64,000 bases of DNA from Cenococcum geophilum. Taxonomy: Eukaryota. Location of the stretch: the NCBI GenBank assembly GCA_050273025.1, contig CP158635.1, positions 17,298,001 to 17,362,000 of the forward strand, read 5' to 3'. Positions 9,968-64,000 of the stretch are shown here, piece after piece. The notes beneath the pieces were generated by a model. That model worked only from the letters and a program-made list of their open reading frames with translations, searched no databases and was not told the origin of the DNA. The stretch's first letter is position 1. Each line of letters starts with the position of its first letter. The translations under genes were made by a program, and so were the position numbers.

Positions 9968-10089
9968 TGAATAGGAATACAATTCTAGCAAAATGCCCTA
10001 TTAACTCTATGCTATGTACGTAAAAAGGCTAAAAACCCGTCCTGCCTTAGGCTATATAGCCCTAATCCTTATAGTTTCCAAAGCTTGTC

Positions 10090-16000: not shown

Positions 16001-16100
16001 ATTTTCCTTAGCGGTGACTATAGGTGTGCGAGAGTCTTCGAGCTCCTAGAGCATCTAGGTATTAGGGCTTATTTAACCGTCTTACCTAGAGGGTTATATT
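10090..16100 (-). pseudogene. gag-pol of gypsy A (gag, PR, RT, RH, IN, chromodomain)
   Basis: CVVYLDDILIY at ~13028-13060, integrase GPF motif at ~10522-10533, chromodomain-like region at ~10200-10350. Ends are approximate. Confidence 0.9.
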
Positions 16101-16512
16101 GTCGCAATCTCTCACTATTAGAGGGACCTTCCTGCCTTTACGCGACGGCTTTCTATAAGGTATCCGTAGAGTTTCCATTTAGGTTATCGCGAGATTTTAA
16201 GGGAAGATGGTGGTTATTAACAAAAGATATAAACAAACAATCTGGTCCTTAAAGCCGACTACCCTTCTAAAAAAGAGTAGGAAGGATTTAAATATAAGGG
16301 GATCTTATAGACAGGGGGCTATAAGGACACAATTGGAATAGGATAGATTGGTAAAAAAGACAAATCCTTAAGGAGGTAAGGCCTTTGGGATTGTAGAGAC
16401 TATATACTACAGGCACGTACCTCCGGTACGTAACCGGCGACCATCTAAGGGGCGTCTAGGGGTTGTCCTAAGGGCAACCCAAGGTGTCCGCAATAATATC
16501 CCTTACAGCCCC

Positions 16513-27140: not shown

Positions 27141-30100
27141 TATAAGGGGACTTTATAGACAGGGGGCTATAAAGACACAATTGTGGAATAGGATAGATTG
27201 GTAAGAGAGACGAATCCTTAAGGAGGTAAGGCCTTTAGGATTGTAGAGACTATATACTACGGATATATGCCTTTAGTACGTAACTAGCGACCATCTAAAG
27301 GGCGTCCGGGGGTTGTCCTAAGGGCAACCTAAGGTGACCGCAATAATATCCCTTATATTGCCCCCCCCCCTTCTTATAGTCGGCCTCTAATTACTATTAC
27401 CTTATAATAGGGAGATTATAAGGGCTTGTCCCGGAAGGGGTTCGGAGAGATATTAGAGAGGTATTAGTATACCGCTATATATTATCTATCTATCTAACCC
27501 CTACTTTAAACTCTTAAAAAACCTTAATAAGAGAAAAATATAACTAAAGAAAAGACGCGAGGATTGCTAGGAACCCGCTAGAAGCCTATTAAAAGCCTAC
27601 TAGTAACTACCTAGGCTAATTTAAGGATTTTTATATAACTTTACATCTAAGCCTTTATACCAGTCTATAATTAATTATAAGTATTATAGGTAATTTAGTA
27701 TTCCTAATATAGTTTTATAAAACTATTTAGTATATAGCTTAATATATAGGGCCTTAGCTTACCACTGTCTTTAACTATTAAAATATAATCCGTAATTGTT
27801 TTATATAATCCTCTACGTCACTAACATATTATTCCCGTATTTGCCCTTAGGTTATTAGATATAGTTAAGGGATTAATTAGTTAATTAAGAAGACTTATCT
27901 CCTAAAATTTAGTATATATGCTTTTAAATCTAGTAGTCCTATACTGTATATTTAGTATAGCTCTACTGCCTAGCAAATAGGGACATTTTGTAATAGCAAT
28001 TGTAGCTATTATACAATTATTAAGAACGTCTATAATGTTAATCTTTAATACTATAATATTATTTTAGGTATAATTTAACCTATATACATCTTTAATTAAC
28101 GTCTTAATTACCTTCTCCTGGCCGCGTACTTAGTTTTTATAAGGAAGTAATAGTTAGATAACGTATACTTATATTTTCTTCCCTTTAAATAATGCTATTA
28201 TAATAGAGTTATATCGGCAAGGTTGCGGCTATTTACTAAAAGGGTATTAGAAGGTAAAGTATAAAGATACCTTTACTTATTAAGCTGCTCCTTTTCCTTA
28301 ACACCTTACTTTCCCATTATTAACCTTCGTCCAATTTTGGACGTATCTTTAATATATTATTAAGATTTTCTTTTTCTACTAACTACTCTTTTAAGCAAAT
28401 TCTATAGTATATCCTGGCCCTACCTTTATATATAAAACCCTAACCTCCGCTAACCTATAACTAGTGCTAGTTCTACCTAAATAATTTTGCTTATATATCT
28501 TTAAAAGACTAGAATTCTAATAATAGAATTCTAGAGGCTTATAATAAGACGCACTACGTTAAATCTAATACCTTTAGTCCTTATAATTAATGCATACGTA
28601 CTAAGAGCGGTAGTTACGTTAAGGTAAGCCTTTCTATTCTTAATAGATTTCTATTGCTAACTTTAAGCTTTAATAGCCTAGGCCTAAGTAGCGACGTTCC
28701 TTTAATGTCCTTAACTACTATATTGCCCAGGCTCTCTCTTATTTTAGCGTAAATACTAAACAACTTGGCCGAATTTAAGACTATACCACGGCTATCTATA
28801 CTGCCTATAATTTCTAGCAAGCTAGTTAGTAACGCCTAATATAAGAGTAAGGTTAGTATACTAAGGATAAGGTAAAGAATAGGGGTAATAAGAAGAAGGT
28901 TGCTATCTACTATAGAAAGGAGTTTGCGCATATATATTAAGTTTTAAAAGAGCATAATATAATATGTTATTAGGTAGGTTACCCTTTAGGTATCTAGCGG
29001 ATAGGTAGCTAATAGTTACTATAGTAAGGTTTTAGTAGTTCTAGATTATACTAGCCAGCTAACATCTCTATTTATTCTAGGCTTAAGTATATCTTTATTA
29101 ACTATAAGCTTACACCGCAAGAGCTTTATTAGTATTAGTTTAGACCTAATATTAGTGTTAAGCGTTTAAGAGTCTCTGCTCTAGCTACACCTTATTATCC
29201 TACCCCTATTTTTATGCCTACTTATACGCCTACTAAGGGATCTAGATCCCATTCTTATTAGCTATTACTTAGTAGCCTAATAGATACTAATCCTACTCCT
29301 TTTTTTTATTTTTTATTTTTATCCGTTGTATTATACTACGTACAATACTGCGCATGCAGCCTTTAGGCTATAGCGCTATAGTTCTATATACATAAATCCT
29401 TTCTAGGCAGCTTAATATGTACTAGTAGCTATGTCCTAGTAGTTTATAAACCCCTAAATTAGGAGTTTATAGTTTCCTAGTAAAATACTAAGATACTACA
29501 ACTACTAGGGAATGAGAAAATGGTAAGAAAAACTGTAAGAAATCCTAACCCCTGTCCCTGTCCTTTTGCAATTTATTTCTATCCTTTTGCTCTCTACTAT
29601 CTTTTACCTAAAAGCCTAGTAGGAGTTACCTCCTTCTAGACTCCTATTAATTTTATTCTTCCATAGAATCTTCTACGCTAGTACTATGTACTAGTTTAGC
29701 TGCTCTAAGATTCTTGCAGTCTTTACTATTAGCAAAGTGTTTTTCTTTACAATTAATGCAAAGAGGGGTGGTATGCTTGCAAGACCTGCCGCTTATTAAG
29801 CAGGTAGGACAGCAGTGGTCTTTAGATAGATGTGTAGCCGCACAATATCTATAGGCCCTATTAGAGCATCTGTCTCCTATATGGCCAAATTTTTGGCAGC
29901 TATTACACTGCGTAGTAGGAGAGACTTCGAGGTATTTTACTACCTTAGTAGCTGTACCTGCAATTGATATCTCTTTTTGCTTAAGGATTTCTTGTCCTTT
30001 TTCTTTATTCTCTATAGTAAAAACTATGGAGCCAAATCTGGTCTGTGGATCGTGTCTTTTTACACTAGATAAGATCTATCTAGGTAGTCCTTGTATCCTT

Positions 30101-32987: not shown

Positions 32988-35900
32988 TAGATATTCTTAT
33001 AAAGCTAATCCAAAGAACGCCGACCTCGTAGCTGTTCTAGCTAGTTAATAGCCTATCTCTTATCTCTTACTATACCGTCTTCTACGCGCCATCTTACATC
33101 CTTAATCATTCTACGGCGACGGCTATAGAATATAGCCTCGCTATTAACCCGCTAGCGTGCCCCCTAGCAGTAATTAAGAGCTTTAATTGACGGCCTACCT
33201 ACTAGCCCTAAAGTCCACTTAGCCTAGAGCTAGAACACCAAATTACCGCCCTAAAGCATCTTATATTTCCTTAGTGGCGCCTATAGGTTAAGAATAAATA
33301 AAAGAGGCTAAATATTAGCCTATGGTAGCTGCGGCGTATTACGGGACTCACACGTTCTTATATCTCTGCGCGCTTTAACATTCTTAACCCGTGCTTACAT
33401 TCGTCCCAAGACACCTACGCACGTTCCCCTATAACCCCTATTTATACCCATACCTAACCTATTCTATTCTGTTCTGCATCTAAATGTCTTTATATTAACT
33501 ACGTATAGTTACGCGTACGTAGCCTTCTTTAATTACTACCCCGTTTAGTATATTATATTCCAGCTTATACCCACTTCTATAATACTATATTTAGATCCCT
33601 TTTCTATACCTAGCGGGCCTATAGGCTACTAGTTACGGAGTATACCTTTCTACGCCTAATATAAGGGTAGATATAGGAGCTGCTGGCTGCAGGTAGACTA
33701 AGACGCTAGGGTTCTAAACTAGTACGACAAGTCTTTGTGCTAATTTGCATACGGACCTAATAATAAGACACCACGCCGATACGCCTGTAGAATCACAACC
33801 TGCCGATAAGATACCGCGCTGATATGCCTACGACCTCAATAGCTTACACCCTACTGCTACCGATTATAAATAGGCATATTACTGCCCCTTAGTTTAACCT
33901 AATAGCTTGTATCCTACTACTATATAAACACAAACACGGAAGCTGGTATCTTACTACTGTCCTACCGACCTATATATACTGCCCGACATACTAACAAGAC
34001 CTTACGCCTATACGCCTGCGAAACGACCCTAATAACCTATTATGCCGATACGCCTACGACCCTATCGCTTATATTATACTACTACCTAAACTAACAAGCC
34101 TTGTGCTAATATGCCTACGAGCCAAATATAACTAGGTAGAGCCTCGCTCCCTAGACCCCCGAACCCGTCACTTATATTATATTACTACCTAAACCAATAA
34201 GCCTTATGCTAATATGCCTATAAGACGACCTGTCGCTGGTATTATACTGCTACCTACCTAAACTAATAAGCCTTATGCTGATATGCCTACAAGACGACCC
34301 CGTTACTAGCACCGTACTACTACTACATAAACTAATAAGCTCTATGCCGATTCGCCTACGGAACCCAAATACATTGCTAGCACTATACTATTACCCAAAT
34401 CTAATAAGATCCTATACCGATATGCCTATAGAACCTACGCTAGCACCATACTGCTACTAATAAGAACCTACCTATAATATAAATACTATACCGCACCAAT
34501 AAGAACCTGTTAAGAATATGCCTTACTACGACCACGAATACCGTACTAACCGTACTATACTACTATTTAGGCCGATAAATACTACCTAAAATGCCTATTT
34601 TGGACTAAAAATCGGGGTAATTTTTTAGGGGGACTTAGAGTATAGGAAGGGAAGGCCGTAGAGCTACTAAAAGCGAGAAAGGAACTGTATAAGCTTTAGC
34701 AATGCGTCTCTAAGTAGTAAGAATAGGAGTGTAGCTGGCGATAGAAGCTAGGCTATGCTTTAGGCCTAATAAGTTAGTGGCCTAATAATTAAATATAGAA
34801 GGACTAAATTGGAGGAGCCTGTATAACAGAGGACGTAGAAGGGCGGAGAAGGCTAACGATTTTTTTTTCCCTATATTAGGTTTTTTTCTAATATATACGA
34901 TATAACACGCTTTATAGGAGCTCGGAAGTAAGGGGGGGGGGTACTGTTACAGAACTTACACGTTCTTACGTCTCTGCGCGCTTTGACGTTCTTAACCTAT
35001 ACTTACGTTCGTCTCGAGACACCTACGCACGTTCCCCTATAACCCCTATTTATACCTATATCTAACCTATTCTGTTCTATTCTGCATCTAAATATCTTTA
35101 TATTAACTATGCATAATTACGCGTACGTAGCCTTCTTTAATTACTACCCCGTTTAGTACATTGTATTCTAGCTCGTGCCCACTTCCGTAACACAGCGGGG
35201 GTATAGTAAACGTTATAGTAGATGGCTAAGCAGGCTCTGTAGTAGGCTCTATAGCAGGCTTTACGGTAGTAGACAGTTAAAGACCCCCTAGTATCTCTGT
35301 AGGGGTTAAATATATAGGAGAGAGTTTATCTAAAGACGGAATTTGGCCGTTAACGCGTTTAGGAACAGACCTAGGTATAGGTATAAGGCCGTCTAAAGAC
35401 GGATATATAGACTCCGTAGGCCCTATCTAGATGCCCGTCTTCCCTTACTAGATCTATATAGGTATAAACAATACTAATAACCTTTCTATCTCGCTAAGGC
35501 GTTCTAAGATCGTCTGCACGCGTAATTAAACCCCCTTTATTTTAGAAATCGCGGCCTTATATCTTAGCTTAGCTACTACCTTATAGGCGGGCCAGTATTT
35601 CCGCATTATTAGCTTATCTAGTATAACTATATTAGCTAGTAAGCTTTCTACCTACGCAGCAAACCTCTAGTACTCCTCGCAGCTAAAGAGGGGGTCCTTC
35701 TATAGGGGGTAAAGCAGGAACTACTTACGTAGAATTACTAAGTCCTATAATAGGATTACCCTAAGTGCGTAGAGGAGGCGTAGAAATCCTAAGCCTATAA
35801 GGTTAAGCCGTATAACCTTATTATCGGCCCTACCTAGGTAGTAAGCCTCTATACGTTTTAGCCAAACGTTAGTCTTAGGCCATATCTTTAAATAAAGGGC

Positions 35901-40111: not shown

Positions 40112-43100
40112 TATTAGTCACACAGGGTGACTTACTAATAACGACTACTCGAGTAGGGTTACAGTGATGTTGGTTGATAAAGCTTATTAATTAAAATAAG
40201 GGAGGGCGAGGAACTTAAGGCTTCTCACCACGCTAGTACCGCGGCAATATATGATGGCAACTTACCATTACGTGACGGCAGTTTGCCGTACGTGGCGGCA
40301 ACTTACCTCATTCCCGACACTAGCAACTCTTCTTTTATGGTTACCATCTATATATAAATACTGCTTAACTATTATAACAAATATAAACCCTCCTTGCTTA
40401 CTATTACCATTATAGTATAAGTCTTGCTGTCCCAAAATTTGCCTCTTAGCACGCGGTGCTTTCTTACTAAGGAGTTATAGGTAGATATTGTGTTAGGGCC
40501 ATTAGGGCCGCTAAGGCGCTAGCTATAAGCAAGCTAATAGCGATTTTCTATCCCGGGGATGGAAAATCCTAATTAGCTAGTTTAAGTTAGGGTCTACAGA
40601 ATCTAACTAATTAGATAACTTTGACCGCCAGTTAAAGTTCCTGGATATTTTAAGGCCTTACGTAACTAAGATATTTCTAGGGACTCCCTTTTTACCTAAC
40701 CTTTAACTTATATATATAGAGTATTTGTGTTAACAAACGTCTCTAGTGCCTTATTTAGGTTCGCCTTTGTTATTATATTTACTGGGTTATCTTAGCCATT
40801 AATTTATTAAATTTTAAAGAGTTTTTAACGTTTATAGGATTAATAAAGTACCATAATGTCGATTATAAGGCGCTTCTCCTTTATAGTACTAAGCTTAACT
40901 AAACACTTATAGAGGGAGTATAAGTTGGTATATATAATTATAGGGATAATAGGAAGTTTAAGTCGATCTATAATTATCTTTAGGGTAGTTCCAATTATAA
41001 TTACTATATTAACTCCGCTAACTATTTTATATATCTTTAACGCTAGAACGCTTTAAGTGACGCGCTTACTCTTAGTTAAGCTCTAATAGATAAGGTTGCC
41101 GTAGATCGTAAAGTTATTTTCTCTAGTAGATTTATTCGCGATAATAATCTTATATCCTAACTAGGAGCTAAAATCTTTATTATTTATAAACGATCTATTA
41201 ACAAATATAAAGAGCTTAGTAGTAGGAAGACTAATAGGCATATAGAGTAGTCCCTAATTAAGATGGTTTATTTGCTAGGAAAGACGTTTATTTAGGGCAA
41301 GAACGTTATCCTTAGTTAGTTCTTAGTGTTAGGCGGCAATAAAGAGATTAAATAAAGCCTTAGGTTAATAGATAAAAGCAATATAAGCTCTGTAAGCGCG
41401 TTGCTCTATATATCCTTACTTTAAGAAATTAACATTAATAACGTTAATCTTCTTACCTTAACCCTTCTAGCGTAAAGCAATAACATCCTTATTTAGGGAG
41501 AGGATGCATTTATTAAAAAGTAATAGTGTTATTAAATTAAGCTTTTCCTTTAGCTTTGCTATAAGATTTGCCCTTACTAGCTTATCTTCTTTAAGGGCTA
41601 AGAATCGGTCGTCTCCTAAGATAATTATATTATTAGTTTATATACCAATAATTCCAAATAGGGTTCCCGTAGTTATAATAAGGAAGCATGGATTAAATAT
41701 AGAAGTAGTTATTAAAAGTTTCTCTTTATAGTGCTTGCTGTAGGTAGCCCACTAATAGGTTTCTGCCTTTGCGATTCTATATAATGGCTTAAGCATAACT
41801 ATAATTATATCCTTAGGATATTAGTAGCAAATTTGCTTTGGAAGGTATGCTAATATTAAGCGCTAAAGGTGCATCTCTAATTAGGTATAGGCCTAAGTAA
41901 TATCTTATAAATAAACCGCCATTCTATTCTTTATTAAGGAGGGAGCTAGCGCAATAATAACTTGCTGACTAGCTTGTTAAATTATAGGAGATTGCGTAAG
42001 AATTACCTCCTTACTATTGTTGTTATAGCCTTAAATAATAAGCCTTAATTTCTTAAATAGGGCGTTAGTAGCTTTACCCTTAATCTTGTTAACTATTCTT
42101 AACTTAAAGATACGAACTCCATTAAACTTAGTATAGTTATACTTCTTAAATTTAAAGACTCCTCTTGTAATAAGACCATCGATCTCCTACTTATTAGATG
42201 CTTAGAAAGGAGCTTCTAGAGTTATAATATAACCTTTTTTTAGAGCTATTTTACGAGCTTAAAGTCAGCCTTCTCCTTAGTTATTATAAAGGCCATTAAC
42301 AGCTTAATTCCGTTCTCAATAGCAGCAACAAATTACTCTTTAAAATTAATAAAATATTAGCAGTTTTATAATCCCTTTAAACAACCTCTACTGCGTTATA
42401 GTTATGGTATATCTACTATAATTATATTAGAATTGTTGTCGCCTTCTAGAGCACGTTAATTGTAGCTCTCCTCTAGGGCATTTTCTATAGCATTCTGCAA
42501 AGGCTTGGAACTATTATCTTTATAGTAAAACTTAATAACAGTTAAACGGAATTAAGTAGGTCTGTAAGGTATCTAAATAATATAAGTCTAACCATTAATT
42601 ATAATAAGTTAATGTGGGCCTAACTATTCTCCCTTTTTACGCTATACGCGTACCTTAGACTGGAGTGGCAGGTCGAGCGTAGTTAAGGTATTTAGGCTAT
42701 TTCTTATTCCTAGTACGTTGTTAACCTAACGTGTGGCGTAAAGACGTTATACCTCCTTTATTGCCTTATAAATAGCCTTAGCTCGTTATATAACGGAGGG
42801 AGATAGTAGAGAATTATTAGTTATTTAAGGGTAGGCGCTAAAGACTAGTAATATGGGTATAAGTCCATCTAAGCCAGCGGAATTGTTAACGGCTTTAATA
42901 GCTATTTATAAGGTAAGTTCTTTACTAGTATCCTCTAGTTCTAAAGAAATAATCTTATATACGCGGTATAATAGCGCGTAATATTATTCTACTTTTCTAA
43001 TACTATTATATACCTTAATAGGGACTTCCTTAACCTTAATTGCTATTGCCTTTATTTATTATTAAAACTCTATAGATAAGAAGTTCTTTCCTACGTTATA

Positions 43101-46100
43101 GACGATTTAATTAGGGGGTCTTAGGTAGATATTAATCCAGTATAGTTAAAGGGTATCCTATATGTTCCTAGTTAATATATCCTTTAAGAAACGTACGGCT
43201 TAGAAGGAGGTTAAGAAATTAATAACTTAGAGTACTAGCTTACCGCTAAAATATATAACGTTAACAATAATATAGAAGTTAAAGTTATAGTTATCTTTAA
43301 GGGTAAACTTAAATCGGCTAAGGAACTTCTAGTTTATTTAGTAGTTATAGTAGTACTTTATAAGGTGCTTAATTGCCTTAACCTTAACTTTATAGCCTAC
43401 TTACTAAAGAACCCTAAGCAATTAATAAACGGATAGGTAACTAAAATAACGGTATAGTTAACGTAACTCTAACTTAGTTAGGTGGCTCTAAGCAACACTC
43501 TTTTCTAGTTAATGAAAAAGTAACTAGGGGTAACCCTACTTACGCATAACGGGTACCCAATTATCTCCCTAAATAAGTATATTTTTAAGGTTATTAAGCT
43601 TAATACTTAATTTATTTATATCTCTAATGCAAAATAGAAATGGGGTATTTATAGGGACAATATAGAAAGTAATATACCCTAGGGGGGTTTGGACCCTAAT
43701 TATACTAAAAGAGATTATAGTACCCTTGCTAAAATAAATCGTGTGTTGGCCTGCCGTTAAATGGTTAATCTAGATAGAGCTATTAAGCTGCTAAAGGGCT
43801 TAAATTTAAGGTTCTCCTGCTGTAGATACTCCTGCGGCTCTAGTATCTGGTATAATACTATAGAAGACGTTCGCCGAGTATCTGTTATTAAAGGAGAACG
43901 CGGAACTCTCCCTTAGCTTATTAAAGATATTTGACTTTATAATAGAATAGAGCGTAGATTAGTTATTAAAAATAGTAACGGTTTATATACCATTCACCTC
44001 ACTATACTTAGTGAAGTATTAGTTAGGAGAGTAGTCCTTAATTTCTATATCTATAAGGAGCTGTTCGGCCTTATTAACCTTACCCTTAAGATCTTCTACG
44101 CCTTTGTATTAAACTAGGAAGCTTTAGAAGTAAGCTATAATAGCCTTATAATTTCCAACGTTTTTTATACTCTAGCGAAACTTATTATATACCTCCTTTT
44201 GCTTATTAAGAGAATGCCTAGTTAACTAGTAATTCAGTTTCTTACAAATATAGCACTTCTTCTGGCAATTACTTTAAAATAAACCTCTATAAGGACCTCT
44301 ACCTTTACCTTATAGTTATTAATTATACCCTCTACCGTATTACCTACTACGGCCACTATATATTTAATTAGTCTAATTATAATTATATTAGCCGGGCGGG
44401 TTAATTAAAGTAGGTTAAAGTTAGGCGTTAAATTATTATACTTTTTAAAAGCGTAGAGCGGTGCTAATAGAAGATCTTAATTAAGTATACACTCCTTTAT
44501 AAGTATTTACAGGATTAAAAAGAGTAAGGTTACATTCTTTAACGCCTTAGCATGCGCTAATGACTTAATTACATAGGCTAAAATCCTCTTAATATAATTC
44601 GGATAAACTACGCTAAATTATCTAAAGTTAATTAAAGAGCTTTTAAAGACAATTAAGCTAAGGGATACCTAGGTTTATAGCAATAATCCTTAGGAAGGTA
44701 GTCTCTCTCTATTCTAACATATACTGCTACTTATTCTCTTTTATTTTAAAGTGGCATCTTAATATATATATTATACGGTTAAAATTATATCCTTTTCCTA
44801 CTAAATAATTATAATAGAAGGTACTAGCTTGGCCCTTAAGCATAACAGAATAGGCGTTATAGTATTAATTAGACTCTATTCCTACCTTTTAGTAATAGTT
44901 ATAAAAGATACGCAATTTCGAATTAAAAGCATTATATAATTCCCTGTTAAACTTCTTCTTCTAATCCAAATAGAGCTTTATAAGCTCTATAAGTAATTTT
45001 AAACTACCTTTGATTTAAGATTAAGATAGAGGAGGTAGGAGTTATATTATAGGCTACAGTAGGGATATAGGTCTAGTTAATAGAGTCTAAAGGGTATTAA
45101 ATTGCAAAGTAATGGGATCCTATTTATGCTCTTATTGGGGTATAATATCTAAAGTTAAAGTTATAGGTTAAATTGGATATAGAGGAGCTAAAGGCAAATA
45201 TAGATTTGTCTCTAAAGGTATATTACTTAAATTCTATTATAAGTTGAGCTTCTTTATAGTGCGTAGTTAGTGCTTAATCTCTTATAGAGTCCATTTATGC
45301 TCTTTTTTTACGTTAATAACCTACTCCTAAATGTTGTTTTTAATAGTACCCCCGTCCTTAAGGACAAATACTCTATTCTCCTAAAGAAAGTTACGGAAGT
45401 CCTATACAATATCCTTATTTATAGGGGCCTATATTTCCTTTATCTATCTAATAAAGTCCTCCTTTATATATTCCTATAGCGCGGTATTATTATATTTACT
45501 ATCCTTATAATATGCTATATAGTATAATAAAAATCTATTTAAGTCTTATTCATTAGCGTTTGCAAGGTTAATTATAGCTTTATTCTATATCTTTAGGTTA
45601 ATATCTTCCTTATACTTCTTTAGGTAGGTTAACGCCATAGTAGGTATAGAATTAACGGGGTGTCGTACGTCAAAGGTAGGTAAGATTTTCGGTTTTATAG
45701 GATCTCGTAGGTTTGCTATTAAGAGGTAGGTAATTTAAGATGTTATTTAACGCGTTTTAGACGTCGTTTAACGCGTTTCGGACGTTAACTTAGGACCCTA
45801 GGTTTAGTAACACTTCTAACCTAAAGTACTTAACTAAATCTTTATAAACGCGGTTGTTCTACGTAATAAACGCAACTTAGTATCTCCTAGTACTTAGTAA
45901 TACTTCTATTACTAGTTTTCCGTAAGTCTAAGGTAGCACAGTATTGCCGGGATCTATTCTATATAAGCGCATATAGCACCCCTGCACAAAACTATCTCTT
46001 CTATTTAAAAACCTAGCTGCTCTATAGTTAACTGTGTATTTAACCACTAATTAGTGTTAGTTATATAGGGTAACTCACCAATAACAACTACTCGAGTAGG

Positions 46101-46262
46101 GTTATAGTAATGTTGGTTAATAAAGCTTATTAATTAGAATGAGGGAGGGCGAGGAACTTAAGGCTCCTTGCCACGCTAGTACCGCGGCGACACGTGATGG
46201 CAACTTGCCATTACGTGACGGCAGTTTGCCGTACGTGGCGGCAACTTGCCTCATTCCCGACA
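40112..46262 (-). mobile_element. Complete Ty1/copia element, copy 1, RIP-inactivated
   Basis: 208-bp LTRs at 40112-40319 and 46055-46262. TSD GATAT at 40107-40111 and 46263-46267. Domain order gag-CCHC, PR, IN, RT (QTDD type), RH. Confidence 0.95.
40431..40682. mobile_element. CCC...GGG insertion (MITE D) in the copia 1 3' UTR
   Basis: Absent from the equivalent position of copia 2 (~55455). Imperfect bipartite inverted ends. Confidence 0.55.
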
Positions 46263-46267
46263 GATAT

Positions 46268-46800
46268 AGTATTTCTTTTTTATTATTTACCTTTAGTGCT
46301 AAGTATATACTGTACTAATTATCTATATATATAGCCTATAATAATATATAATACGCTAGATGTCTTAGGTTAACTCTTAGCTTCTTTTTATTCTTAAGTT
46401 TAAACCTTTACTTAACTAATCTAGCTTCTGGCCTGCTATTAGTAAGTACTAAAATTTATTATTTACTTCTCTAGTCCTCTAATTATCCTTTTAAGTCTCT
46501 TAATATTATTATTAAGGCTCCTTAAATATAACTTATTTATTATTCCAATATTACTTAGTTTATAATAACTTATTTATCTAGCTATATATAGAAGTCTTCC
46601 CACTTATTATTATATTGCTGTCTATGCCACTTTTAATAATGCTTTATAAGTATATACGATCTATTTATAAGAAAGTATCTCTTTATTACTATATCGTTAT
46701 AACCTTTTATATATTATTTTTTAAACCTAGTAGAGATTCTAAAATTCTCTTTCTATTCGATTTCTTATAACTACTTTACCTTTAGCGTACTTATTTTTAG
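46268..46800 (-). pseudogene. Fragment of an older LTR-element gag-like ORF (continues at 39803-39947)
   Basis: RIP-reversed H.....(W)A.(C).DD.(C)..(H)...K motif at ~46290-46365. It is the target of MITE A and copia 1. Confidence 0.4.
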
Positions 46801-47294
46801 TGTTGGGAGTAAGATAAATAGTCGTCACGTGTTACTGTGGCACTAGCGTAGCGAGGAGCCCTAAGCTCCTCGCCCTTCCTTATTCTAGGAAACAACAAGT
46901 ATATTAACTAATATTACTATAACCTATTTAAGTAGTTGTTATTAGTAAGTCACCCTATGTAACTAATACTAATTAGTGGTTAAATATATAGTTAACTATA
47001 GAACAGCTAGGTTCTTAATAGAAGAGATAGTCTTATATAGGGGTGCTATATACGCTTATATAGAATGGATCCCGGCGATATTATGCTACCTTAAACTTAT
47101 AGAAAACTAGTAATAGAAGTATTACTAAGTACTAGGAGATACTAAGTTGTGTCTATTATATAGAACAACCACGTTTATAAAGATTTAGTTAAGTATTTTA
47201 GGTTAGAAGTGTTACTAAACTTAGGGTTTTAAGTTAATATCTAAAACGCGTTAAACAACCATCTAAATACCTTTAGTGTACCTTCGCAAACTAT

Positions 47295-47443
47295 CCCTTC
47301 TAACGCTGGCGTCTAACGAGAACGTGGTCTGTGCGCGAACACCAGAATTAAAAGTACGCGTATGGTCACGGAGCCTTGATCTAATTGATTCTATTAGCTA
47401 GCTCTTATCGATAACAGTTAGACGCAAACCAGCGTTGGAAGGG
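47295..47443. mobile_element. CCCTT...AAGGG MITE, copy B
   Basis: TIR CCCTTCTAACGCTGG-CGTCTAAC / GTTAGACG-CAAA-CCAGCGTTGGAAGGG. Internal motifs shared with copy A. Confidence 0.8.
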
Positions 47444-49044
47444 ATAGGATTACAATTACTACCTAACTATATATTAAACAACCTTTATTTCCCTTAATTT
47501 TTTTTATTCAAGCGCGTTACATAATCTTTAATAATAGCTATTATAGCGTTAACCTACCTAAAAAAGTACGAGGATAATATTAACCTAGAGATATAGAAAA
47601 CCGATATAATTAACCTTAAAGATGTTAATTAATAAGACTTAAACGAATTCTTATTATACCGTATAGTATACTATAAAGATAGCGAATATAATAACACTAT
47701 ACTATAGTACTGTATAAGGGAGGACTTTATTAGATAGATAAAGGAAATATAAACTTTTATAAAGAAGGATATTATATAAGACTTCCGTAACTTCTTACGA
47801 GAGTATAAAGTGTTTATACCTATAGATAGGGGTACTATTAAAGACAATATTTAGGAGTAGGTTATTAACGTAAAAGAAGAGCATAAATGGACTCTATAAG
47901 AGATTAAGCACTAACTACGCACTATAAAGAAGCTCAACTTATAATAGAATTTAAGTAATATACCTTTAGAGACAAATCTATATTTGCCTTTAGCTCCTCT
48001 ATATCCAATTTAACCTATAACTTTAACTTTAGATATTATACCCCAATAAGAGCATAAATAGGATCCCATTACTTTGCAATTTAATACCCTTTAGACTCTA
48101 TTAACTAGACCTATATCCCTACTGTAGCCTATAATATAACTCCTACCTCCTCTATCTTAATCTTAAATCAAAGGTAGTTTAAAATTACTTATAGAGCTTA
48201 TAAAGCTCTATTTGGATTAGAAGAAGAAGTTTAACAGGGAATTATATAATGCTTTTAATTCGAAATTGCGTATCTTTTATAACTATTACTAAAAGGTAGG
48301 AATAGAGTCTAATTAATACTATAACGCCTATTCTGTTATGCTTAAGGGCCAAGCTAGTACCTTCTATTATAATTATTTAGCAGGAAAAAGATATAATTTT
48401 AACCGTATAATATATAAGTTAAGATACTGCTTTAAAATAGAAGAGAATAAGTAATAGTATATATTAAAATAGAGAGAGACTACCTTTTTAAGGATTATTG
48501 CTATAAACCTAGGTATTTCTTAACTTAATTATCTTTAAAAGCTCTTTAATTAACTTTAGATAATTTAGCGTGGTCTATCTAAATTATATTAAGAGGATTT
48601 TAGCCTACGCGATTAAGTTATTAGCGTATACTAAGGTGTTAAAAAATATAACCTTACTTTCTTTAATCCTATAAGTACTTACGAAGGGGTATATACCTAA
48701 TTAAGATCTTTTATTAGTACTGCTCTGCGATCCTAAGAAGTACAGCAATTTAATACTTAACTTTAACTTACTTTAATTAAATATAACTAACACGACTATA
48801 ACTAGACTAATTAAATATATAGTGGTTATAGTAGGGACTATAGTAGAGGGTATAATTAATGTTAACTATAAGGTAATTATAGAGGTCCTTATAAAGGTTT
48901 ATTTTAAAGTAATTACTAGAAGAAGTGCTATATATATAGGAAGCTAAATTGCTAGTTAACTAGGCATTCTCTTAATAAGCAAAAAGAGGTATATAATAAG
49001 TTTCGCTAGAGTATAAGAAATGTTAGAAATTATAAGGTTACTAT

Positions 49045-49330
49045 CCCTTAACCCGCCGGCGTCCTACCGGAAGCTGGTCCGTGCTTAAACACTAGAATGA
49101 AAATAACATATATAGCTAATTACCATTAGCGATGCCTTCCCATCGTACTTCCAATGATATTGACTTTGTTCAACCGACTCAATATAACGTTCAGCCGAAT
49201 TGATGTGCTAAAAAGCCACCACCGAAGCCATGGCCGCTGCCAGATTTTACTCCTATGACGATTCAATTTAGTTAATCTGATTGGCTAGTTCTTATCGATA
49301 ATGGTAGGACGCATTCCGGCGGGTTAAGGG
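49045..49330 (+). mobile_element. CCCTT...AAGGG MITE, copy C, retaining a short ORF start
   Basis: TIR CCCTTAACCCGCCGG-CGTCCTACC / GGTAGGACG-CATT-CCGGCGGGTTAAGGG. The empty site is visible in copia 1 (~44130-44145). ATG at 49132: MPSHRTSNDIDFVQPTQYNVQPN*CAKKPPPKPWPLPDFTPM. Confidence 0.85.
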
Positions 49331-52205
49331 ATAACCTACTTCTAAAGCTTTCTAGTTTAATATAAAGGCATAGAAGATCTTAAGGATAAGGTTAATAAGA
49401 CCGAATAGCTCCTTACAGATATAGAAATTAAGGACTACTCTCCTAACTAATACTTTACTAAGTATAGTAGGATAGATAGTATATAAACCGTTACTATTCT
49501 TAATAACTAATCTACGCTCTATTCTATTACGAAGTTAGATATCTTTAATAAGCTAAAGAAGAGTTCCGCGTTCTGCTTTAATAATAGATACTTAGCAAAT
49601 ATCTTCTATAGTATTATGCCAGATACTAGAGCTGCAAGAGTATTTATAGTAGGAGAACCTTAAGTTTGAGCTCTTTAGTAGATTAATAGCTCTATTTAGA
49701 TTAACTATTTAACGGCAGGCTAATATACGATTTATTTTAGCAAGGGTACTATAATCTCTTTTAGCACAATTAGGGTCTAACCCCCCTTAGGGTATATTAC
49801 TTTCTACGTTATTTTTATAAATACTCCGTTTCTATTTTATATTAAAAATATAAATAAATTAGGCGTTAATTTTAATAACCTTAAGAATGTACTTATTTAG
49901 GGGGATAACTAGGTGCCTATTATACGTAAGTAAGGTTACCCTTAGTTACTCCTTTATTAACTAGAAAAGAGCGTTACTTAAAGCTACTTAACTAAGTTAG
50001 AGTTACGTTAACTATACTATTATTTTAGCTACCTATCCGTTTACTAATTGCTTAGGGTTCTTTAGTAAGTAGGCTATAAAATTAAAGTTAAGGCAATTAA
50101 GCATCTTATAAAGTACTATTATTACTACTAAATAAACTAAAAGTCCCCTAGCTAATTTAAGTTCACCCTTAAAGATAACTATAACTTTAACTTCTATATT
50201 ATTATTAACGTTATATATCTTAGCGGCAAGCTAGTACTTTAAGTTATTAACTTCTTAACCTCCTTCTAAGCCGCACGTTTTTTTAAAGGATATATTAGCT
50301 AGGAATGTATAAAATACTCTTTAATTATATTAGATTAATATCTACCTAGGACCCCTTAATTAAATTGTCTATAATATAGGAAAGAACTTCTTATCTATAG
50401 AGTTTTAATAATAGATAAAGGTAATGGCAATTAAGGTTAAGGAAGTCCTTATTAAGGCATATAATAGTATTAAAAAAGTAGAGCGATATTATACGCTATT
50501 ACGCCGCGTATATAAGATTATTTTTTTAAAACTAAAGGGCGTTAATAAAAAGCTAATCTTATAAATAGCTGTTAAGGCTATTAACAACTCCGCTAGCCCA
50601 GATAGGCTTATACCTACATTACTAGTCTTTAGCGCCTACCCTTAAATAACTAATAATTCTTTACTATTTCCCTCTATTATATAATAAGCTAAGGCTATTT
50701 ATAAGGTAATAAAGGAGGTATAACGTCTCTATGCTATACGCTAGGTTAATAACGTACTGGGAATAAGAAATGGCCTAAATACCTTAACTATGCTTAAGCT
50801 GCTACTCTAATCTAAGGTACGCGTATAGCGTAAAAAGGGAGAATAATTAAGCCTACATAAGCTAATTGCAATTAATAGTTAAACTTATACTATTTAGATG
50901 CCCTATAGACCTACTTAATTCCATTTAACTATTATTAAGCCTTACTATAAAGATAATAGTTCTAAGCCTTTATAGAATGCCCTAGAAGATATTTTAAAGA
51001 AAAACCGCAATTAATGTGCTTTAGAAGGCGACTATAATTCTAATATAATTATAGTAGATATGCCGTAACTATAACGCAGTAGAGGTCGCCTAAAAGGATT
51101 ATAAAATCGCTAATATCTTATTAATTTTAAAGAGCAATTTGTTGCCGCCATTAAGAATAAAGTTAAGTTATTAATGGCCATTATAACAGCTAAAGAGAAG
51201 GCTAACTTTAAGCTTATAAAATAGCTCTAAAAGGGAGGTTGTATTATAACTTTAGGAGCTCCTTTTTAAGCATCTAATAAGTAGGAAATTAATGGTCTTA
51301 TTATAAGAGCAGTCTTTAAATTTAAGAAGTATAACCCTACTAAATATAATAGAGTTCGCATTTTTAAGTTAAGAATAGTTAATAAGATTAAGGGCAAAGC
51401 TACTAACGCTCTATTTAAGAAATTAAGGCTTATTATCTAAGGCTACAATAATAATAGTAAGGAGGTAATTCTTATATAATCTCCTATAATTTAATAAGCC
51501 AGTTAGTAAGTTATTATTACGCTAGCTCCCTCCTTAATAAAAAATAGAATGGCGGTTTATTTATAAAATATTACCTAGGCCTATACCTAATTAGAGATAT
51601 ACCTTTAGCGCTTAATATTAGTATACCTTTTAGAGTAAATTCGTTACTAATATCCTAAAGATACAATTATAGTTATGCTTAAGCCATTATATAGAATTGC
51701 AGAGGTAGGAACTTATTGGTAGGCTACCTACAGCAAGTACTATAAAGAGAAACTTTTAATAACTATTTCTATATTTAATTTACACTTCCTTATTATAACC
51801 ACGGAAACCCTATTTAGAATTATTGGCATATAAACTAATAATATAATTATTTTAGAAGACGACCAATTCTTAGCTCTTAAAGAAGATAAGCTAGTAAAGG
51901 CAAATCTTATAGTAAAGCTAAAGGAAAAGCTTAATTTAATAATACTATTACTTTTTAATAGATGCATCCTCTCCCTAAATAAGGATTCTATTACTTTACG
52001 CCAAAAGGGTTAAGGTAAGAAGATTAACATTATTAACGTTAATTCTCTAAAGTAAGAATATATAGAGTAACACGCTTACAAAGTATATATTACTTCTATC
52101 TATTAACCTAAGGCTTCCTTTAATCTCTCTATTGCCGCTTAACACTAGGAACCAACTAAGAATAATATTCTTGCCCTAAATAAGCGTCTTTCCTAGTAAA
52201 TAAAC

Positions 52206-52450
52206 TGTAAGCTTTGCAGTGTGAGGAATTGCATAAACGACTTGATTGTAAATATAGCTCTAAAGCCTCTATATATACACGAAGAATGTGGAGGTAATAA
52301 GACATAATAGGGTAATAGGTAACTAAAATAGGAACAATAATCTGCAAGCAATATTAATCTACAATCAATATATAGGGTGGTGTTAACGCTGTCTTAGAGC
52401 CTTCCAAGCGGTGATCTTATATCTCAGTACAGTGTTGGTAGTTGGTTATA
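52206..52450. mobile_element. Solo LTR (245 bp) of a family not otherwise seen in the window
   Basis: TGTAAG...TTATA ends. TSD TAAAC at 52201-52205 and 52451-52455. Absent from copia 1. Confidence 0.85.
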
Positions 52451-52997
52451 TAAACCATCTTAACTGGGGACTACTCTACGTGCCTATTAATCTTCCTACC
52501 GCTAAGCTATTTGTATTTGTTAATAGATTATTTATAAATAATAAAGATTTTAGCTTCTAATTAGGATATAAGATTATTATCGCGAATAAATCTACTAGAA
52601 AGAATAACTTTATAATTTATAGTAATTTTATCTATTAAAGCTTAACTAAGAGTAAGCGCGTTACTTAAAGCGTTTTAGCGTTAGAGATATATAGAATAGT
52701 TAGCAGAGTTAATATAGTAATTGCAATTAGAACTACCTTAAAGATAATTATAGATTAACTTAAACTTCCTATTATCCCTATAATCGTGCGCACCGACTTA
52801 TACTCCCTCTATAAGTGTTTAGTTAAGCTTAATACTATAAAGGAGAAGCGCTTTATAATTAATATTATGGCACTTTAACAATCCTATAAACGGCAAAAAC
52901 TCTTTAAGATTTAATAAATTAATAGCTAAGACAACCTAGTAGATATAATAATAAAGGTAAACCTAAATAAGGCTTTAGAGATATTTATTAATATAAG

Positions 52998-55429
52998 TGT
53001 AAGGCAGTATTGCTAGGGTATATAGTAGGGAGCAGGTAAGCCGAGCATAAGTCACATAGGGAGTCGATAAAAGAGGACAATATGGTAAAGAGTAGGCAAT
53101 AGCCTTATACGGAGACGAACCGATGAGGAGGGAAGGGCTATAAGCCTGAGGTGCTTATAAGGAGGTGCCAAGGGCTAGCCGAAGGCTAGCCTTGGCGACC
53201 CCTAAGAGCCCCTAGGCGATACAGCCGAGTAAGGGCCAAAATAACCCTTACATTGCCCCCCACTTGGTTAGGGCTGGCCCCCAGCCCGTATCCCAATAGA
53301 TTGATTCTATATATAGAAAGGTAAGCAGTGCAGAAGCCTTGCTTGTACAGGGGAATAAAGAAATGGGGAAAAGGACCAGCCAAGCAGCCTTAATAAAAAC
53401 CTTAACCTATAGCCAAAACCCAGTGGGAAAAAGGGCCTATTTTAGGTAGGAAAAGAGCGTCTGCTAGTGGGTAAGACTTAATCGTATACGATCAGTCTTG
53501 GAGACAATCGCCTGCAATTAAGTCTTGACAGCTCTATGGCTGACAGCCAGATAGTCTCCACTTAGAGCCGGCTTAATCACAAGAATATCCCTTACTTTCC
53601 CCCCCCTTCTTGCGGTCAGCCCCCTCCATTACCTTACGGTAGCGGGAGATTATAGAGGGCTCGTCCCGGAAGGGGTTCGGAGAGATATCGGGTCTTATAA
53701 GCCTTTGAAGCAAGCTGGAGCTCTTGGAGCGACCAAAGCCTTGCTAAGAGATCGCGTACGATCTTTGTAAGACGTAGCTCTTTTAGAGACTTTAAACTGA
53801 CGTCTTAATTGCCTTCCCCCGGCCGCGTAATCAGTTTTTGTAAGGAAGTGATAGCTAAATAGCTATACGCGTGTTTCCTTCCTTCTGAATTACACTGTTA
53901 TTACGGAGTAATATTGGCAATAAGAGATCACGTAGGATCTAAGAGCTGCTGCCATTCTCTTGGGCAAGCTGTAGCTCTTGATGCAAGCTGGAGCTCTTGG
54001 AGCGACCAAAGCCTTACAGAGAGATGATCGCGTACGATCTTTGAGCCGTAGCTCTTGAAGCAAGCAGTAGCTTGTGAGACCACCTACGATCTCGATAAGC
54101 CGTAGCTCTTGGACGAGCCGTAGCTCTTGAAGCTGTAGCTATAGCTTAAGGATGGCATTTAACCGCAATAGGATCTCATAAGCTGAGCTTGTAACTTCAG
54201 AGACAATCGCGTACGATTAAGTCTCGGCAGCCCCATAGCTGACAGCCGGAAACTTTCCGGGTTGGGCCGTAGCCCTTGAGCGATCGCGAACGATCTAAGA
54301 GCCGTAGCTCTTGAGGCAAGCAGTAGCTTGCGAGACCACCTACGATCTCGATGAGCCGTAGCTCTTGAAGCAAGCAGTAGCTTGTGAGATCACATAGGAT
54401 CTCTGAGCCGAAGCTCTTGAGGTAAGCCGTAGCTTAATGAGACAACCGCCTGCGATTTAGTCTCGGCAGCCCTTTGGCTGATTGGGCAGTAGCCCTTAAT
54501 TGCATTTGATCTGGAAGCGCATAGTAGTAGCTATAGCTTTAAAAACTAGCCGTTAGTTCTTCGGATGGCCATTAAATAGCAATCGGATAGCCTCCAGGGT
54601 AGCTGCATCTCTTTAAGGACGTTCAACCTTCTAATCTCTGTTGGTGGGACCTCTATAGCAAGTGAACCGCGGTTAGCTATAGAGTGTTTACAAGCTTAAT
54701 CGCGTAGGATCCCCCTTAACTCCTACTAGAAAGCTTTCGGATAGCAATTAAATCGCCTTTAGGTCGCCGTCGGGGCAGAGTTGCACCGCTGCACTGTCAA
54801 TCATATGCGGGTATACTAATCGCGTCAAAAGATGATCGTGTACGATCCGGATAGCCCCAACCCTTAGCCAGGTAGCTACCGTCTCCCTTATCTCCTAATC
54901 CGTGTCTACCACCGTAAGCGGATGCGATCTGCTAGCGTCTGCTAGTGTAGCTGCTCTATAGCATACGCGATCGTCCTAGGTAAAGGTAGAGGACCTGATC
55001 TGTATTCCAACACCGTTATACGGATGCGATCTGCCAGGCGTCTGCTAGTGTACCTGCTGTATCGCAGTGAACGCGATCGTCCTAGGTAAAAATGGAGGAT
55101 CGTGATTTTGCTCAAGGGCGCAGCCCTCAGCTTGCTGCAGGCTACCACCCGTAAGGGTGTAGGATCGGTTCGAATGTAAGGCAGTATTGCTAGGGTGTAC
55201 GGTAGGGAGTAGGCAAGCCGAGCATGAGTCACATAGGGAGTCGATGGAAGAGGACGATATGGTAAAGAGTAGGCAATAGCCTCGTACGGAGACGAACCGA
55301 TGAGGAGGGAAGGGCTGCAAGCCTGAGGTGCTTATAAGGAGGTGCTAAGGGCTAGCCGAAGGCTAGCCTTGGCGACCCCTAAGAGCCCCTAGGCGATGCA
55401 GCCAAGTAAGGGCCAAAATAACCCTTATA
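52998..55429 (-). mobile_element. Non-autonomous LTR element (2432 bp) with a palindromic repeat array and gypsy-A-derived segments
   Basis: 255-bp LTRs at 52998-53252 and 55175-55429. TSD ATAAG at 52993-52997 and 55430-55434. PPT GGGGGGCAA. No retroelement ORF. Confidence 0.93.
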
Positions 55430-55513
55430 ATAAGTTAAAGGTTAGGTTAAAAGGGAGTAGGAGTAAGACTTATATTATAATAGTAATAGTTAATAGGCAC
55501 GTACTATACGCTA

Positions 55514-62213: not shown

Positions 62214-62539
62214 TCGGTAAAATATAGTACCCTTTCAATGGCCTTAATGGTTGGTGGTTGACGCAATTGGCGCGCAGTTAAGGGCATTTAGCAACTCGAC
62301 CGACTAGCCTATATCGTGTTTTTTTGACACGCAGCCTGCGCGTAGCCTGCGTGTAACCTGCGCGCAACCTACGCATAACCTACTAGTAATCTGCGCATTT
62401 GGCAACCATAATTATATTTACCTCTTTTATACTAATAATATATTTTAAATAAATAAAAGCTATTTTAAAGCTATTTATAAGGCTAGCAAAATAAATATTA
62501 TTATTTTAGATAATTTAATATAATATAGCGATGGTTCTC

Positions 62540-62940
62540 TTCTACCTATTTACCTATTGACTTACCTACCTACCTACATCGCCTACCTATTTATATCGCC
62601 TACCTATCTACATCTACCTATCTACATTTGCCTACCTATCTATATCTACCTACCTATCTATATTTACCTACCCGTTAGCATTTATTTACCTATCTATATC
62701 TACTTACCTATCTGCATCTACCTACCTATTTATATCTACTTATCTATATCTACCTACCTATCTATATCTGCCTACCCGTTAGTATCTACCTACCTATCTA
62801 TATCTGCTTGCCTATCTATATCTACTTACCTATCTATATCTACCTGCCTATCTATATCTGCTTACCTATCTATATTTACCTACCTATCTACATCTACCTA
62901 CCCGTTAGCATCTACCTGTTTATGCCTACCTGTCTATGCT
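62540..62940. repeat. Degenerate (CTAC/CTAT)n microsatellite-like tract
   Basis: Directly visible. Confidence 0.9.
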
Positions 62941-62984
62941 ACCTTAATTCGATCGATTGATCGAATCGTTTATAATGTTGGCTG

Positions 62985-64000
62985 GCTAGTCGTTGTCGTC
63001 TAGCTCTGGCGACGGTTGTCTAGTTCTGGCAACGGTCGTCTGGTTCTGGCGACGGTCGTCTGGCTCTGGCAACGGTCGTCTAGTTCTGGTAACGGTCGTC
63101 TGGTTCTGGCGACGGTCGTCTGGTTCTGGCGACGGTCGTCTGGTTCTGGTAACGGTCGTCTGGCTGGCGACGGTCGTCTGGTTCTGGCGACGGTCGTCTG
63201 GTTCTGGTAACGGTCGTCTGGCTGGCGACGGTCGTCTGGTTCTGGCGACAGTCGTCTGGTTCTGGTAACGGTCGTCTGGCTGGCGACGGTCGTCTGGTTC
63301 TGGCGACGATCGTCTGGCTCTGGCAACGGTCGTCTGGTTCTGGTAACGGTCGTCTGGCTGGCGACGGTCGTCTAGTTCTGGCGACGGTCGTCTGGTTCTG
63401 GTGACAGTCGTCTGGTTCTAGCGACGGTCGTCTGGCTCTGGCAACGGTCGTCTGGTTCTGGTAACGGTCGTCTGGCTGGCGACGGTCGTCTGGTTCTGGC
63501 GACAGTCGTCTGGTTCTGGTAACGGTCGTCTGGCTGGCGACGGTCGTCTGGTTCTGGTAACGGTCGTCTGGCTGGCGACGGTCGTCTGGTTCTGGCGACG
63601 ATCGTCTGGCTCTGGCAACGGTCGTCTGGTTCTGGTAACGGTCGTCTGGCTGGCGACGGTCGTCTGGTTCTGGCGACGGTCGTCTGGTTCTGGTGACAGT
63701 CGTCTGGTTCTAGCGACGGTCGTCTGGCTCTGGCAACGGTCGTCTGGCTCTGGTAACGGTCGTCTGGCTGGCGACGGTCGTCTGGTTCTGGTAACGGTCG
63801 TCTGGCTGGCGACGGTCGTCTGGTTCTGGTAACGGTCGTCTGGCTGGCGACGGTCGTCTGGTTCTGGCGACGATCGTCTGGCTCTGGCAACGGTCGTCTG
63901 GTTCTGGCGACGGTCGTCTGGCTGGCGATGGTCGTCTGGTTCTGGTAACGGTCATCTGGTTCTGGCGACGGTCGTCTAGTTCTAGCAACGGTCCTCTGCT
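62985..64000. repeat. GC-rich minisatellite of mixed 20-bp (GGTTCTGGCGACGGTCGTCT) and 18-bp (GGCTGGCGACGGTCGTCT) units, running off the window
   Basis: Directly visible. It accounts for all overlapping ORF calls in this interval. Confidence 0.95.

Follow-up and report, generated by a model that had tools for sequence, protein, structure and literature searches.

Several described systems come close to the element analyzed here. LARDs are several kb long and combine a conserved non-coding interior and a predicted RNA structure with a presumed gypsy helper, while retrozymes are non-autonomous, Ty3/gypsy-dependent elements with a highly structured RNA and a hammerhead ribozyme in the LTR. Retroviral packaging signals such as MLV psi and that of VL30 RNA consist of hairpins with tetraloops in tandem and of palindromes that serve dimerisation, and the self-priming duplex of Tf1 is 11 nt long. 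For Tf1 and Tj1, the text of PMC4600332 describes a primer-binding site (PBS) placed right after the 5' LTR and complementary to an LTR-internal sequence. According to the text of PMC10886601, TRIMs are defined as shorter than 1000 bp, SMART and FRetro64 have short stretches in common with their presumed helpers, and it is unknown how a non-autonomous LTR element maintains its link to a helper. The main text of PMC13570524 presents the non-autonomous LTR families of sugar beet as modular and reshuffled, invokes template switching, and gives helper links for a subset of families only.

The window analyzed in this study (the whole stretch of 64,000 nt, with all coordinates counted from its first letter) contains at 52998-55429 a 2.4-kb non-coding LTR retrotransposon of the minus strand (Table 1). 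We consider it probable that this element is a non-autonomous, self-priming parasite of the Ty3/gypsy type, the RNA of which is made of small stable hairpins and the helper of which belongs to the lineage of gypsy A, a RIP-damaged chromovirus of the same window.

Table 1. Coordinates of the element, its parts and gypsy A in the window.
Feature	Position	Strand	Remark
Left target-site duplication (TSD) ATAAG	52993-52997		same 5 bases at 55430-55434
3' LTR, RNA sense TGTAAGGG...CCTTACA	52998-53252	-	93.7% identical to 55175-55429
Own polypurine tract (PPT)	53253-53267	-	near-identical to gypsy A PPT/LTR junction (53240-53282 vs. 7804-7845)
Conserved 3' interior	53268-53479	-	found in nearly all copies
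Last hairpin modules of array	53480-53575	-	
A1, captured gypsy A piece	53580-53689	-	in 58/66 interiors
Hairpin modules between A2 and A1	53690-53789	-	
A2, captured gypsy A piece	53790-53920	-	in 30/66 interiors
Main tetraloop-hairpin array	53921-54520	-	GAGC-UACG-GCUC, GGGC-UACG-GCCC, AAGC-UACG-GCUU, GAUCG-UACG-CGAUC and others
5' interior	54521-55139	-	~110-bp duplication inside (54894-54999 / 54994-55106)
Leader hairpin	55140-55163	-	directly past PBS
Putative self-priming PBS TTCGAACCGAT	55164-55174	-	
5' LTR	55175-55429	-	
ATCGGTTCG, PBS complement inside 5' LTR	55293-55301	-	predicted RNA 5' end and self-primer (putative start site)
Right TSD ATAAG	55430-55434		
GATCGCGTACGATC copies	53480, 53750, 53926, 54026, 54078, 54205, 54282, 54334, 54388, 54698, 54834		
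GCCGTAGCTC copies	54045, 54099, 54117, 54301, 54355		
Gypsy A, RIP-damaged chromovirus	7602-16507	-	SH3_Tf2-1 and Chromo domains

Anatomy, predicted self-priming site and genomic family

The window consists of AT-rich repeat DNA almost without ORFs, and its pattern of stop codons and C-to-T/G-to-A changes is one that we take to be fungal RIP. With a GC content of 48–50%, the element stands out from these surroundings. It sits inserted in the right-hand member of a large inverted pair of related elements (40725-52996, arms of 0.5–1.2 kb that are 86–90% complementary). At the far end (window positions 62524-64000), units of 18 and 20 bp are repeated in tandem with a strong strand skew, and GC reaches 62% in the final kilobase.

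A first-pass annotation of this DNA had proposed a non-autonomous LTR element with its own LTRs and PPT, and this is borne out by two 253-bp LTRs (93.7% alike, with TG...CA ends), a PBS and a PPT adjoining them, a flanking TSD and the absence of gag and pol. The copy in the window has no ORF of 150 aa, and the longest ATG frames in other copies reach 190 and 153 aa. Orientation needed correction: with the purine tract on the minus strand, the RNA reads from 55429 downward. The same annotation had also recognized the palindromic repeats, while overlooking both their character as covarying RNA-type hairpins and the self-priming site.

The latter consists of TTCGAACCGAT directly after the 5' LTR and its complement ATCGGTTCG within the LTR, which pair as a 9-bp duplex in the predicted fold of two copies. 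Gypsy A carries a PBS and a complement at the same places, and three matched differences separate CGAACCGAT/ATCGGTTCG of the element from CGAATCCTT/AAGGATTCG of gypsy A. This complementarity points to self-priming of the Tf1 type, with a presumed start site and cleavage. Past the PBS, gypsy A and a second autonomous family each have a comparable leader hairpin.

Within the genome (178 Mb, 7 contigs), at least 79 LTR/PBS junctions of the element type were found (0 for the control). Most of the distinct junctions (72/78) continue into the hairpin array; the other six are truncated or fused, none of them runs on into a sense-strand gag/pol, and no long coding member was found among the 78. The sequence GAGCTACGGCTC occurs 230 times in the genome vs. 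4 times for a control, and 18 of the 20 clusters fetched from the first 100 of these 230 places belong to the family (L110 and L114 lie outside). We extracted 66 complete interiors, which measure 1.13–3.0 kb except for three with large insertions, full copies being about 1.6 to 3.5 kb long; the 5' interior exists in two subtypes. The TSD is exact in 34/46 copies. No transversion separates the LTRs in 39/55 pairs of the element and 9/10 pairs of gypsy A, so both are young on this RIP-blind clock and of the same age class. Many solo LTRs accompany the family, including nine high-identity single LTRs considered as possible autonomous members and rejected as such (no PBS or PPT alongside, TSD-like flanks in most). 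Neither the LTR nor the interior of the element resembles the intact gypsy elements of contig C7.

Some copies deserve separate mention. Tandem copies with a common middle LTR occur at L036, L039, L049, L099, L102 and L159, the pair in L049 having the same module string and those in L102 and L159 nearly so. At L171:186-1270 (G000:C7:4459285 onward), one element LTR with PBS and leader hairpin is fused directly to a single-copy, non-RIP host gene (residues about 118–421; 469-aa relatives 85–88% identical; no Pfam match), and the exact junction is seen in RNA-library contigs of three studies (loose end at 55140). This represents an LTR-driven chimeric transcript shared between strains, in which either the promoter was taken over or an mRNA was captured. 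Near one end of C7, a cluster of gypsy and LINE elements (G000:C7:70000-1035000; L076–L079, L083, L116–L125) with open pol frames and LTRs 98–99.5% identical has apparently been spared by RIP or is very young.

Gypsy A pieces and the probable helper

By its SH3_Tf2-1 and Chromo domains, gypsy A can be assigned to the chromoviruses of the Tf1/Tj1 group, among those with Tf1-type self-priming. It shares with the element both LTR ends (TGTAAGGG, CCTTACA) and the PPT junction, the PBS begins with TTCGAA in both, and copies of the element are found inside gypsy A elements (L102, L108, L160). Gypsy A represents the donor lineage of A1 and A2 and is likely the helper. The evidence for the helper stops short of proof, because the LTR bodies are hardly alignable (score 49, about shuffled background) and the second autonomous family shares the U5/PBS junction, i.e., only that side, with the element. 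RIP-tolerant scoring of a low-RIP copy against three gypsy A copies and the second family revealed no similarity beyond A1 and A2.

Gypsy A itself has about 2.4 kb between chromodomain and 3' LTR (7912-10270), a region in which one plus-strand frame seems protein-like when read with X at stops and has no Pfam match. An antisense gene of gypsy A, assumed in the first-pass annotation, was not confirmed: translation of two frames with X in place of stops produced no Pfam match.

The two gypsy A-homologous segments reported earlier were recovered as described. The match of 53580-53688 to 7801-7910 (80.5%, E = 1.5e-19, 90 bits) and that of 53790-53920 to 8547-8678 (84.8%, E = 5e-32, 131 bits) lie far above the best of 50 shuffled interiors compared with the window (32.6 bits; 49 gave a match), and each piece has a further counterpart in a second gypsy A-like copy (27341-27453 and 28091-28220). 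A1 spans the PPT together with about 95 nt on its upstream side and 13–18 nt of U3, and provides a second, internal PPT, while A2 originates from the region between pol and 3' LTR; both lie in sense orientation.

BLAST of the 66 interiors, from which the final counts are taken since an earlier A1 motif had missed the variant A1 of L097 and L165, found A1 only in 30, A2 followed by A1 in 24, A1 followed by A2 in 2 (L097, L165), A2 only in 2 and neither piece in 6; two interiors gave two A2 matches, one being a true duplication (L019) and the other split by an insertion (L099). Where both pieces are present (28 copies), the gypsy A order of A2 before A1 is kept in 26, and the spacing between markers varies from 227 to 660. 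Perfect TSDs flank L043 and L050, which have neither piece, as well as L097 with its reversed order. In a pan-sequence of 49 interiors, A1 and A2 are the only gypsy A pieces among the shared segments, and single-copy novelties are later insertions of other elements or local variants. This lends no support to a cassette that goes on collecting fragments. The view of the first-pass annotation that the gypsy A pieces are extra, captured components holds, given non-uniform copies, an array dissimilar to gypsy A and the reversed order in 2/66.

Relative to 14 gypsy A copies, the common versions of A1 and A2 carry fixed indels and transversions; they lie nearer to the variant found in L117. More donor-like versions with other junctions occur in L097, L165, L006 and L041 and represent either ancestral states or repeat captures. 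Short stretches identical to module sequence are observed at the A1 junctions, GACATCTCTC on one side and TTGCG on the other. Capture likely took place by template switching, and co-packaging of gypsy A RNA would be the simplest explanation for it.

Do these pieces matter to the element? Possibly, although we think it rather unlikely, they are selected helper cis-elements, with A1 priming the second strand as a central PPT and A2 providing a folded signal for packaging or export, so that carriers would have an advantage in access to helper proteins; such an addition would be compatible with a hairpin-RNA parasite of gypsy A. Such selection would agree with the presence of A1 in 58/66 interiors, nearly always in the same slot; with the predicted closed stem-loops of both pieces (z −2.8 for A2, −1.8 for A1); with a matched double transversion in a small A2 stem of most copies (TAAC/GTTA to TTAC/GTAA); and with the two versions of each piece having different junctions. 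In L151 (3431-4556), the 3' interior is gone and the captured A1 PPT directly adjoins the 3' LTR, which would suit a working PPT, but the flanks of this copy match at only 4/5 bases. Other observations speak against selection: A1 folds equally well on the opposite strand, a sliding fold of six RIP-damaged gypsy A 3' regions has no minimum at A2, six of the 66 copies do without both pieces (two of them with perfect TSDs), and descent from one founder could produce the high frequency. In our reading, A1 and A2 travel along as optional passengers and are of slight use at best (A1 as a second PPT).

The hairpin array, its shuffling and expression

The recurring near-palindromes noted earlier are indeed present: with up to 3 mismatches, GATCGCGTACGATC occurs 11 times within 53480-54847 and once elsewhere in the 64 kb (12220), two of the initial coordinates (53490, 54708) having been about 10 bp off. 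From their sequence variation, these "palindromes" appear to be hairpin modules with covarying stems. Matched variants include GAGC/GCTC, GGGC/GCCC and AAGC/GCTT, as well as the pairs CCGGAG/CTCCGG (35), CCGGAA/TTCCGG (10), AATCG/CGATT and AACCG/CGGTT. At the first variable stem pair in 63 interiors, A-U was counted 738 times, G-C 95 times and unmatched bases 21 times, i.e., 833/854 cases (not independent events) are Watson-Crick. UNCG loops, a class with extra stability in RNA, close 172 of 207 GC-closed 4-bp stems on the sense strand of 19 low-RIP copies (UACG, UUCG or UGCG), so that the N position (A, U or G) varies by transversion. The stem changes of the array are transitions only and stem from few ancestral events, and some of them can be mimicked by RIP and palindrome correction in DNA.

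Folding of the repeat modules, as proposed in the first-pass annotation, predicted a string of short stem-loops for the sense strand of 53920-54520 (z −6.2 vs. −4.6 for the other strand), with a strand preference across copies that is weak or contrary. A global fold favored the sense strand in 0/7 copies scored (12 of 19 skipped), and a local fold did so in 6/14 by raw energy and 11/14 by z-score (8 shuffles, 5 copies skipped); predicted folding energy thus does not clearly pick the sense strand. An excess of G-U at the outer pair (435 vs. 6 A-C) was rejected as proof of the RNA strand, since the CpA that follows the stem, a RIP context, accounts for it. An Rfam search of 3 loci gave five weak matches, all below gathering score and none a ribozyme. 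The array would most likely serve packaging, dimerisation or RNA stability, and a packaging role in particular may be suspected for its hairpins.

The order of modules is highly variable. A RIP-tolerant, noisy tokeniser, which somewhat overstates the number of true architectures, distinguished 61 module strings in 66 interiors. All four combinations were observed for all 15 pairs of six markers in a four-gamete test of 54 copies (repeated loss can let presence/absence markers pass), and in the same set the point markers LTR type and leader loop gave combinations of 7/19/15/10. The 5' and 3' LTR types agree in 46/48 scorable copies. Mosaic interiors within matched LTRs and TSDs argue for recombination before integration, which fits template switching in reverse transcription, although gene conversion after insertion may also keep TSDs.

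A separate observation concerns window positions 33339-35193, where a second non-coding LTR element with 247-bp LTRs has its own, unrelated internal repeat array; it matches L192 at 78–83% and does not match the element at 52998-55429. Two LTR families have reached the same design.

An unlikely explanation, to which we nevertheless give some weight, takes the array as a functionless by-product, in which small palindromes multiply and stay perfect through slippage, template switching or palindrome correction, conversion at the DNA level does the shuffling, and A1 and A2 are neutral hitch-hikers. The weak strand asymmetry of folding, the wide range of array length (interiors of 1.13 to 3.0 kb without insertions) and the exclusive occurrence of transitions among stem changes would all be expected from such a process. 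It accounts less well for loops that are non-random (UNCG in 172/207, with N varying by transversion), for the several modules kept even in the shortest copies, and for the own array of a second, unrelated family. If this explanation were correct, the element would represent a tidy but ordinary parasite family.

Expression is supported by public data. Between 21 and 24% of the element's words are present in 20/24 listed RNA runs; four of the 24 were aligned to the element, one of them as raw reads (12% of the run). Contigs of three studies, which may include DNA, cover 30/30 bins, and their joints display module orders other than that of the window copy. They differ from the latter mainly by A>G and T>C, indicating that less RIP-damaged relatives are the expressed ones. 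In the raw-read run, 505 reads aligned, mostly 90–95% alike and the majority on the LTR; first mates on the interior fell almost only on the plus strand in this one run, so the interior RNA would be of minus-strand, sense origin if the library is of the usual stranded kind.

These data bear on the earlier suggestion that the element is directed at gypsy A as a decoy, as a source of small RNAs or as a cassette collecting spacers, which we now regard as very improbable. Foreign pieces do lie between repeats, and a hairpin-rich RNA is expressed. However, just two foreign pieces are shared in 49 interiors, with no copy-specific spacers besides later insertions; both are in sense orientation, and 6/66 copies lack both; reads are one-stranded, with little opposite-strand signal; the stems of 4–8 bp are far shorter than typical Dicer substrates; and the element presumably depends on a helper. 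The alternative named alongside this suggestion takes the element for an ancient remnant left by colinear deletion in gypsy A or in a relative with the repeats already in its 3' region. It is refuted for practical purposes, since the A2-before-A1 order (26/28) and the common LTR ends and PPT junction are outweighed by an array and 5' and 3' interiors dissimilar to three gypsy A copies and the second family under RIP-tolerant scoring, by non-uniform copies without continuous alignment, by the reversed order in L097 (perfect TSD) and L165, by the variable A1–A2 spacing and by the lack of any long coding member found. True colinear deletion derivatives do exist here for contrast: L179 and L182 are short elements that derive from the second autonomous family and consist of blocks of it in their original order.

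The favored account of a self-priming, helper-dependent hairpin RNA can be outlined as a cycle. Transcription would start from the 5' LTR and follow the minus strand, in line with the one-stranded reads; the RNA 5' end would pair with its own PBS and, presumably after cleavage, start reverse transcription in the manner of Tf1. Packaging and copying of this RNA would fall to proteins of the gypsy A lineage, as the shared LTR ends and PPT junction suggest. Template switching of RT between co-packaged RNAs at shared hairpins may then reshuffle, duplicate and delete modules, and switches onto co-packaged gypsy A RNA may have brought in A1 and A2, which later spread as two modules. A bolder and rather speculative extension, improbable at present, sees the interior as an evolving multivalent packaging scaffold that arose independently in at least two families here, its stacked UNCG hairpins outcompeting the helper for Gag, acting as recombination joints that generate new arrangements in each round of replication and repeatedly recruiting folded helper cis-domains into these joints; if true, it would amount to a natural selection experiment on retrotransposon packaging signals.

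Comparison with known systems

No description of a shuffled tetraloop array or of a self-priming non-autonomous LTR family was found in the open literature. The main text of PMC13570524 never uses the word "hairpin", and the terms "non-autonomous" and "LARD" are absent from the main text of PMC12910237 on a TE-rich, RIP-bearing ascomycete, the TE library of which could hold the family. The family comprises dozens of natural variants in which defined modules are variously retained, missing, doubled or placed in another order, it is expressed in several public RNA sets, and its two short helper regions together with the hairpin class are candidates for helper recognition.

Two classes were considered and rejected. 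A CRISPR-like repeat-spacer memory array would have diverse copy-specific foreign spacers between uniform repeats, which the element does not; and a colinear deletion derivative of gypsy A would have ordered parent blocks and parent LTRs, neither of which is found.

With the self-priming chromoviruses of the Tf1/sushi group, the element has in common a PBS complementary to its own predicted RNA 5' end, but it has neither gag nor pol and hence no RT or chromodomain integrase of its own, and its duplex in the predicted fold measures 9 bp as compared to that of Tf1. Like TRIMs and other non-coding LTR families, it has two LTRs, a PBS, a PPT, a TSD, no coding capacity, tandem copies and solo LTRs. 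It differs from TRIM-type families in being, by its predicted PBS, self-primed rather than tRNA-primed and in having a combinatorial tetraloop-hairpin array as its interior, and full copies of about 1.6 to 3.5 kb are too long for the strict TRIM limit. Reshuffling is attributed to template switching here as in the text on the sugar beet families (PMC13570524), and short stretches are shared with a presumed helper as in the text on SMART and FRetro64 (PMC10886601). A non-coding interior with predicted RNA structure and a presumed gypsy helper bring the element near to LARDs, yet it is shorter (interiors mostly 1.1–3.0 kb) and its interior is shuffled instead of conserved, which places it outside that class. 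Retrozymes are alike in non-autonomy, in structured RNA (predicted here) and in Ty3/gypsy dependence (presumed here), whereas no Rfam family, the hammerhead included, reaches gathering score in the element, which carries its structure in the interior, not in the LTR. Tandem tetraloop stem-loops and self-complementary motifs, predicted here from sequence, are common to the element and to MLV psi and VL30, the element being distinct in its 10–30 hairpins of variable order. Overall, the element works like a TRIM/LARD-type parasite of a self-priming chromovirus, with a size outside both definitions.
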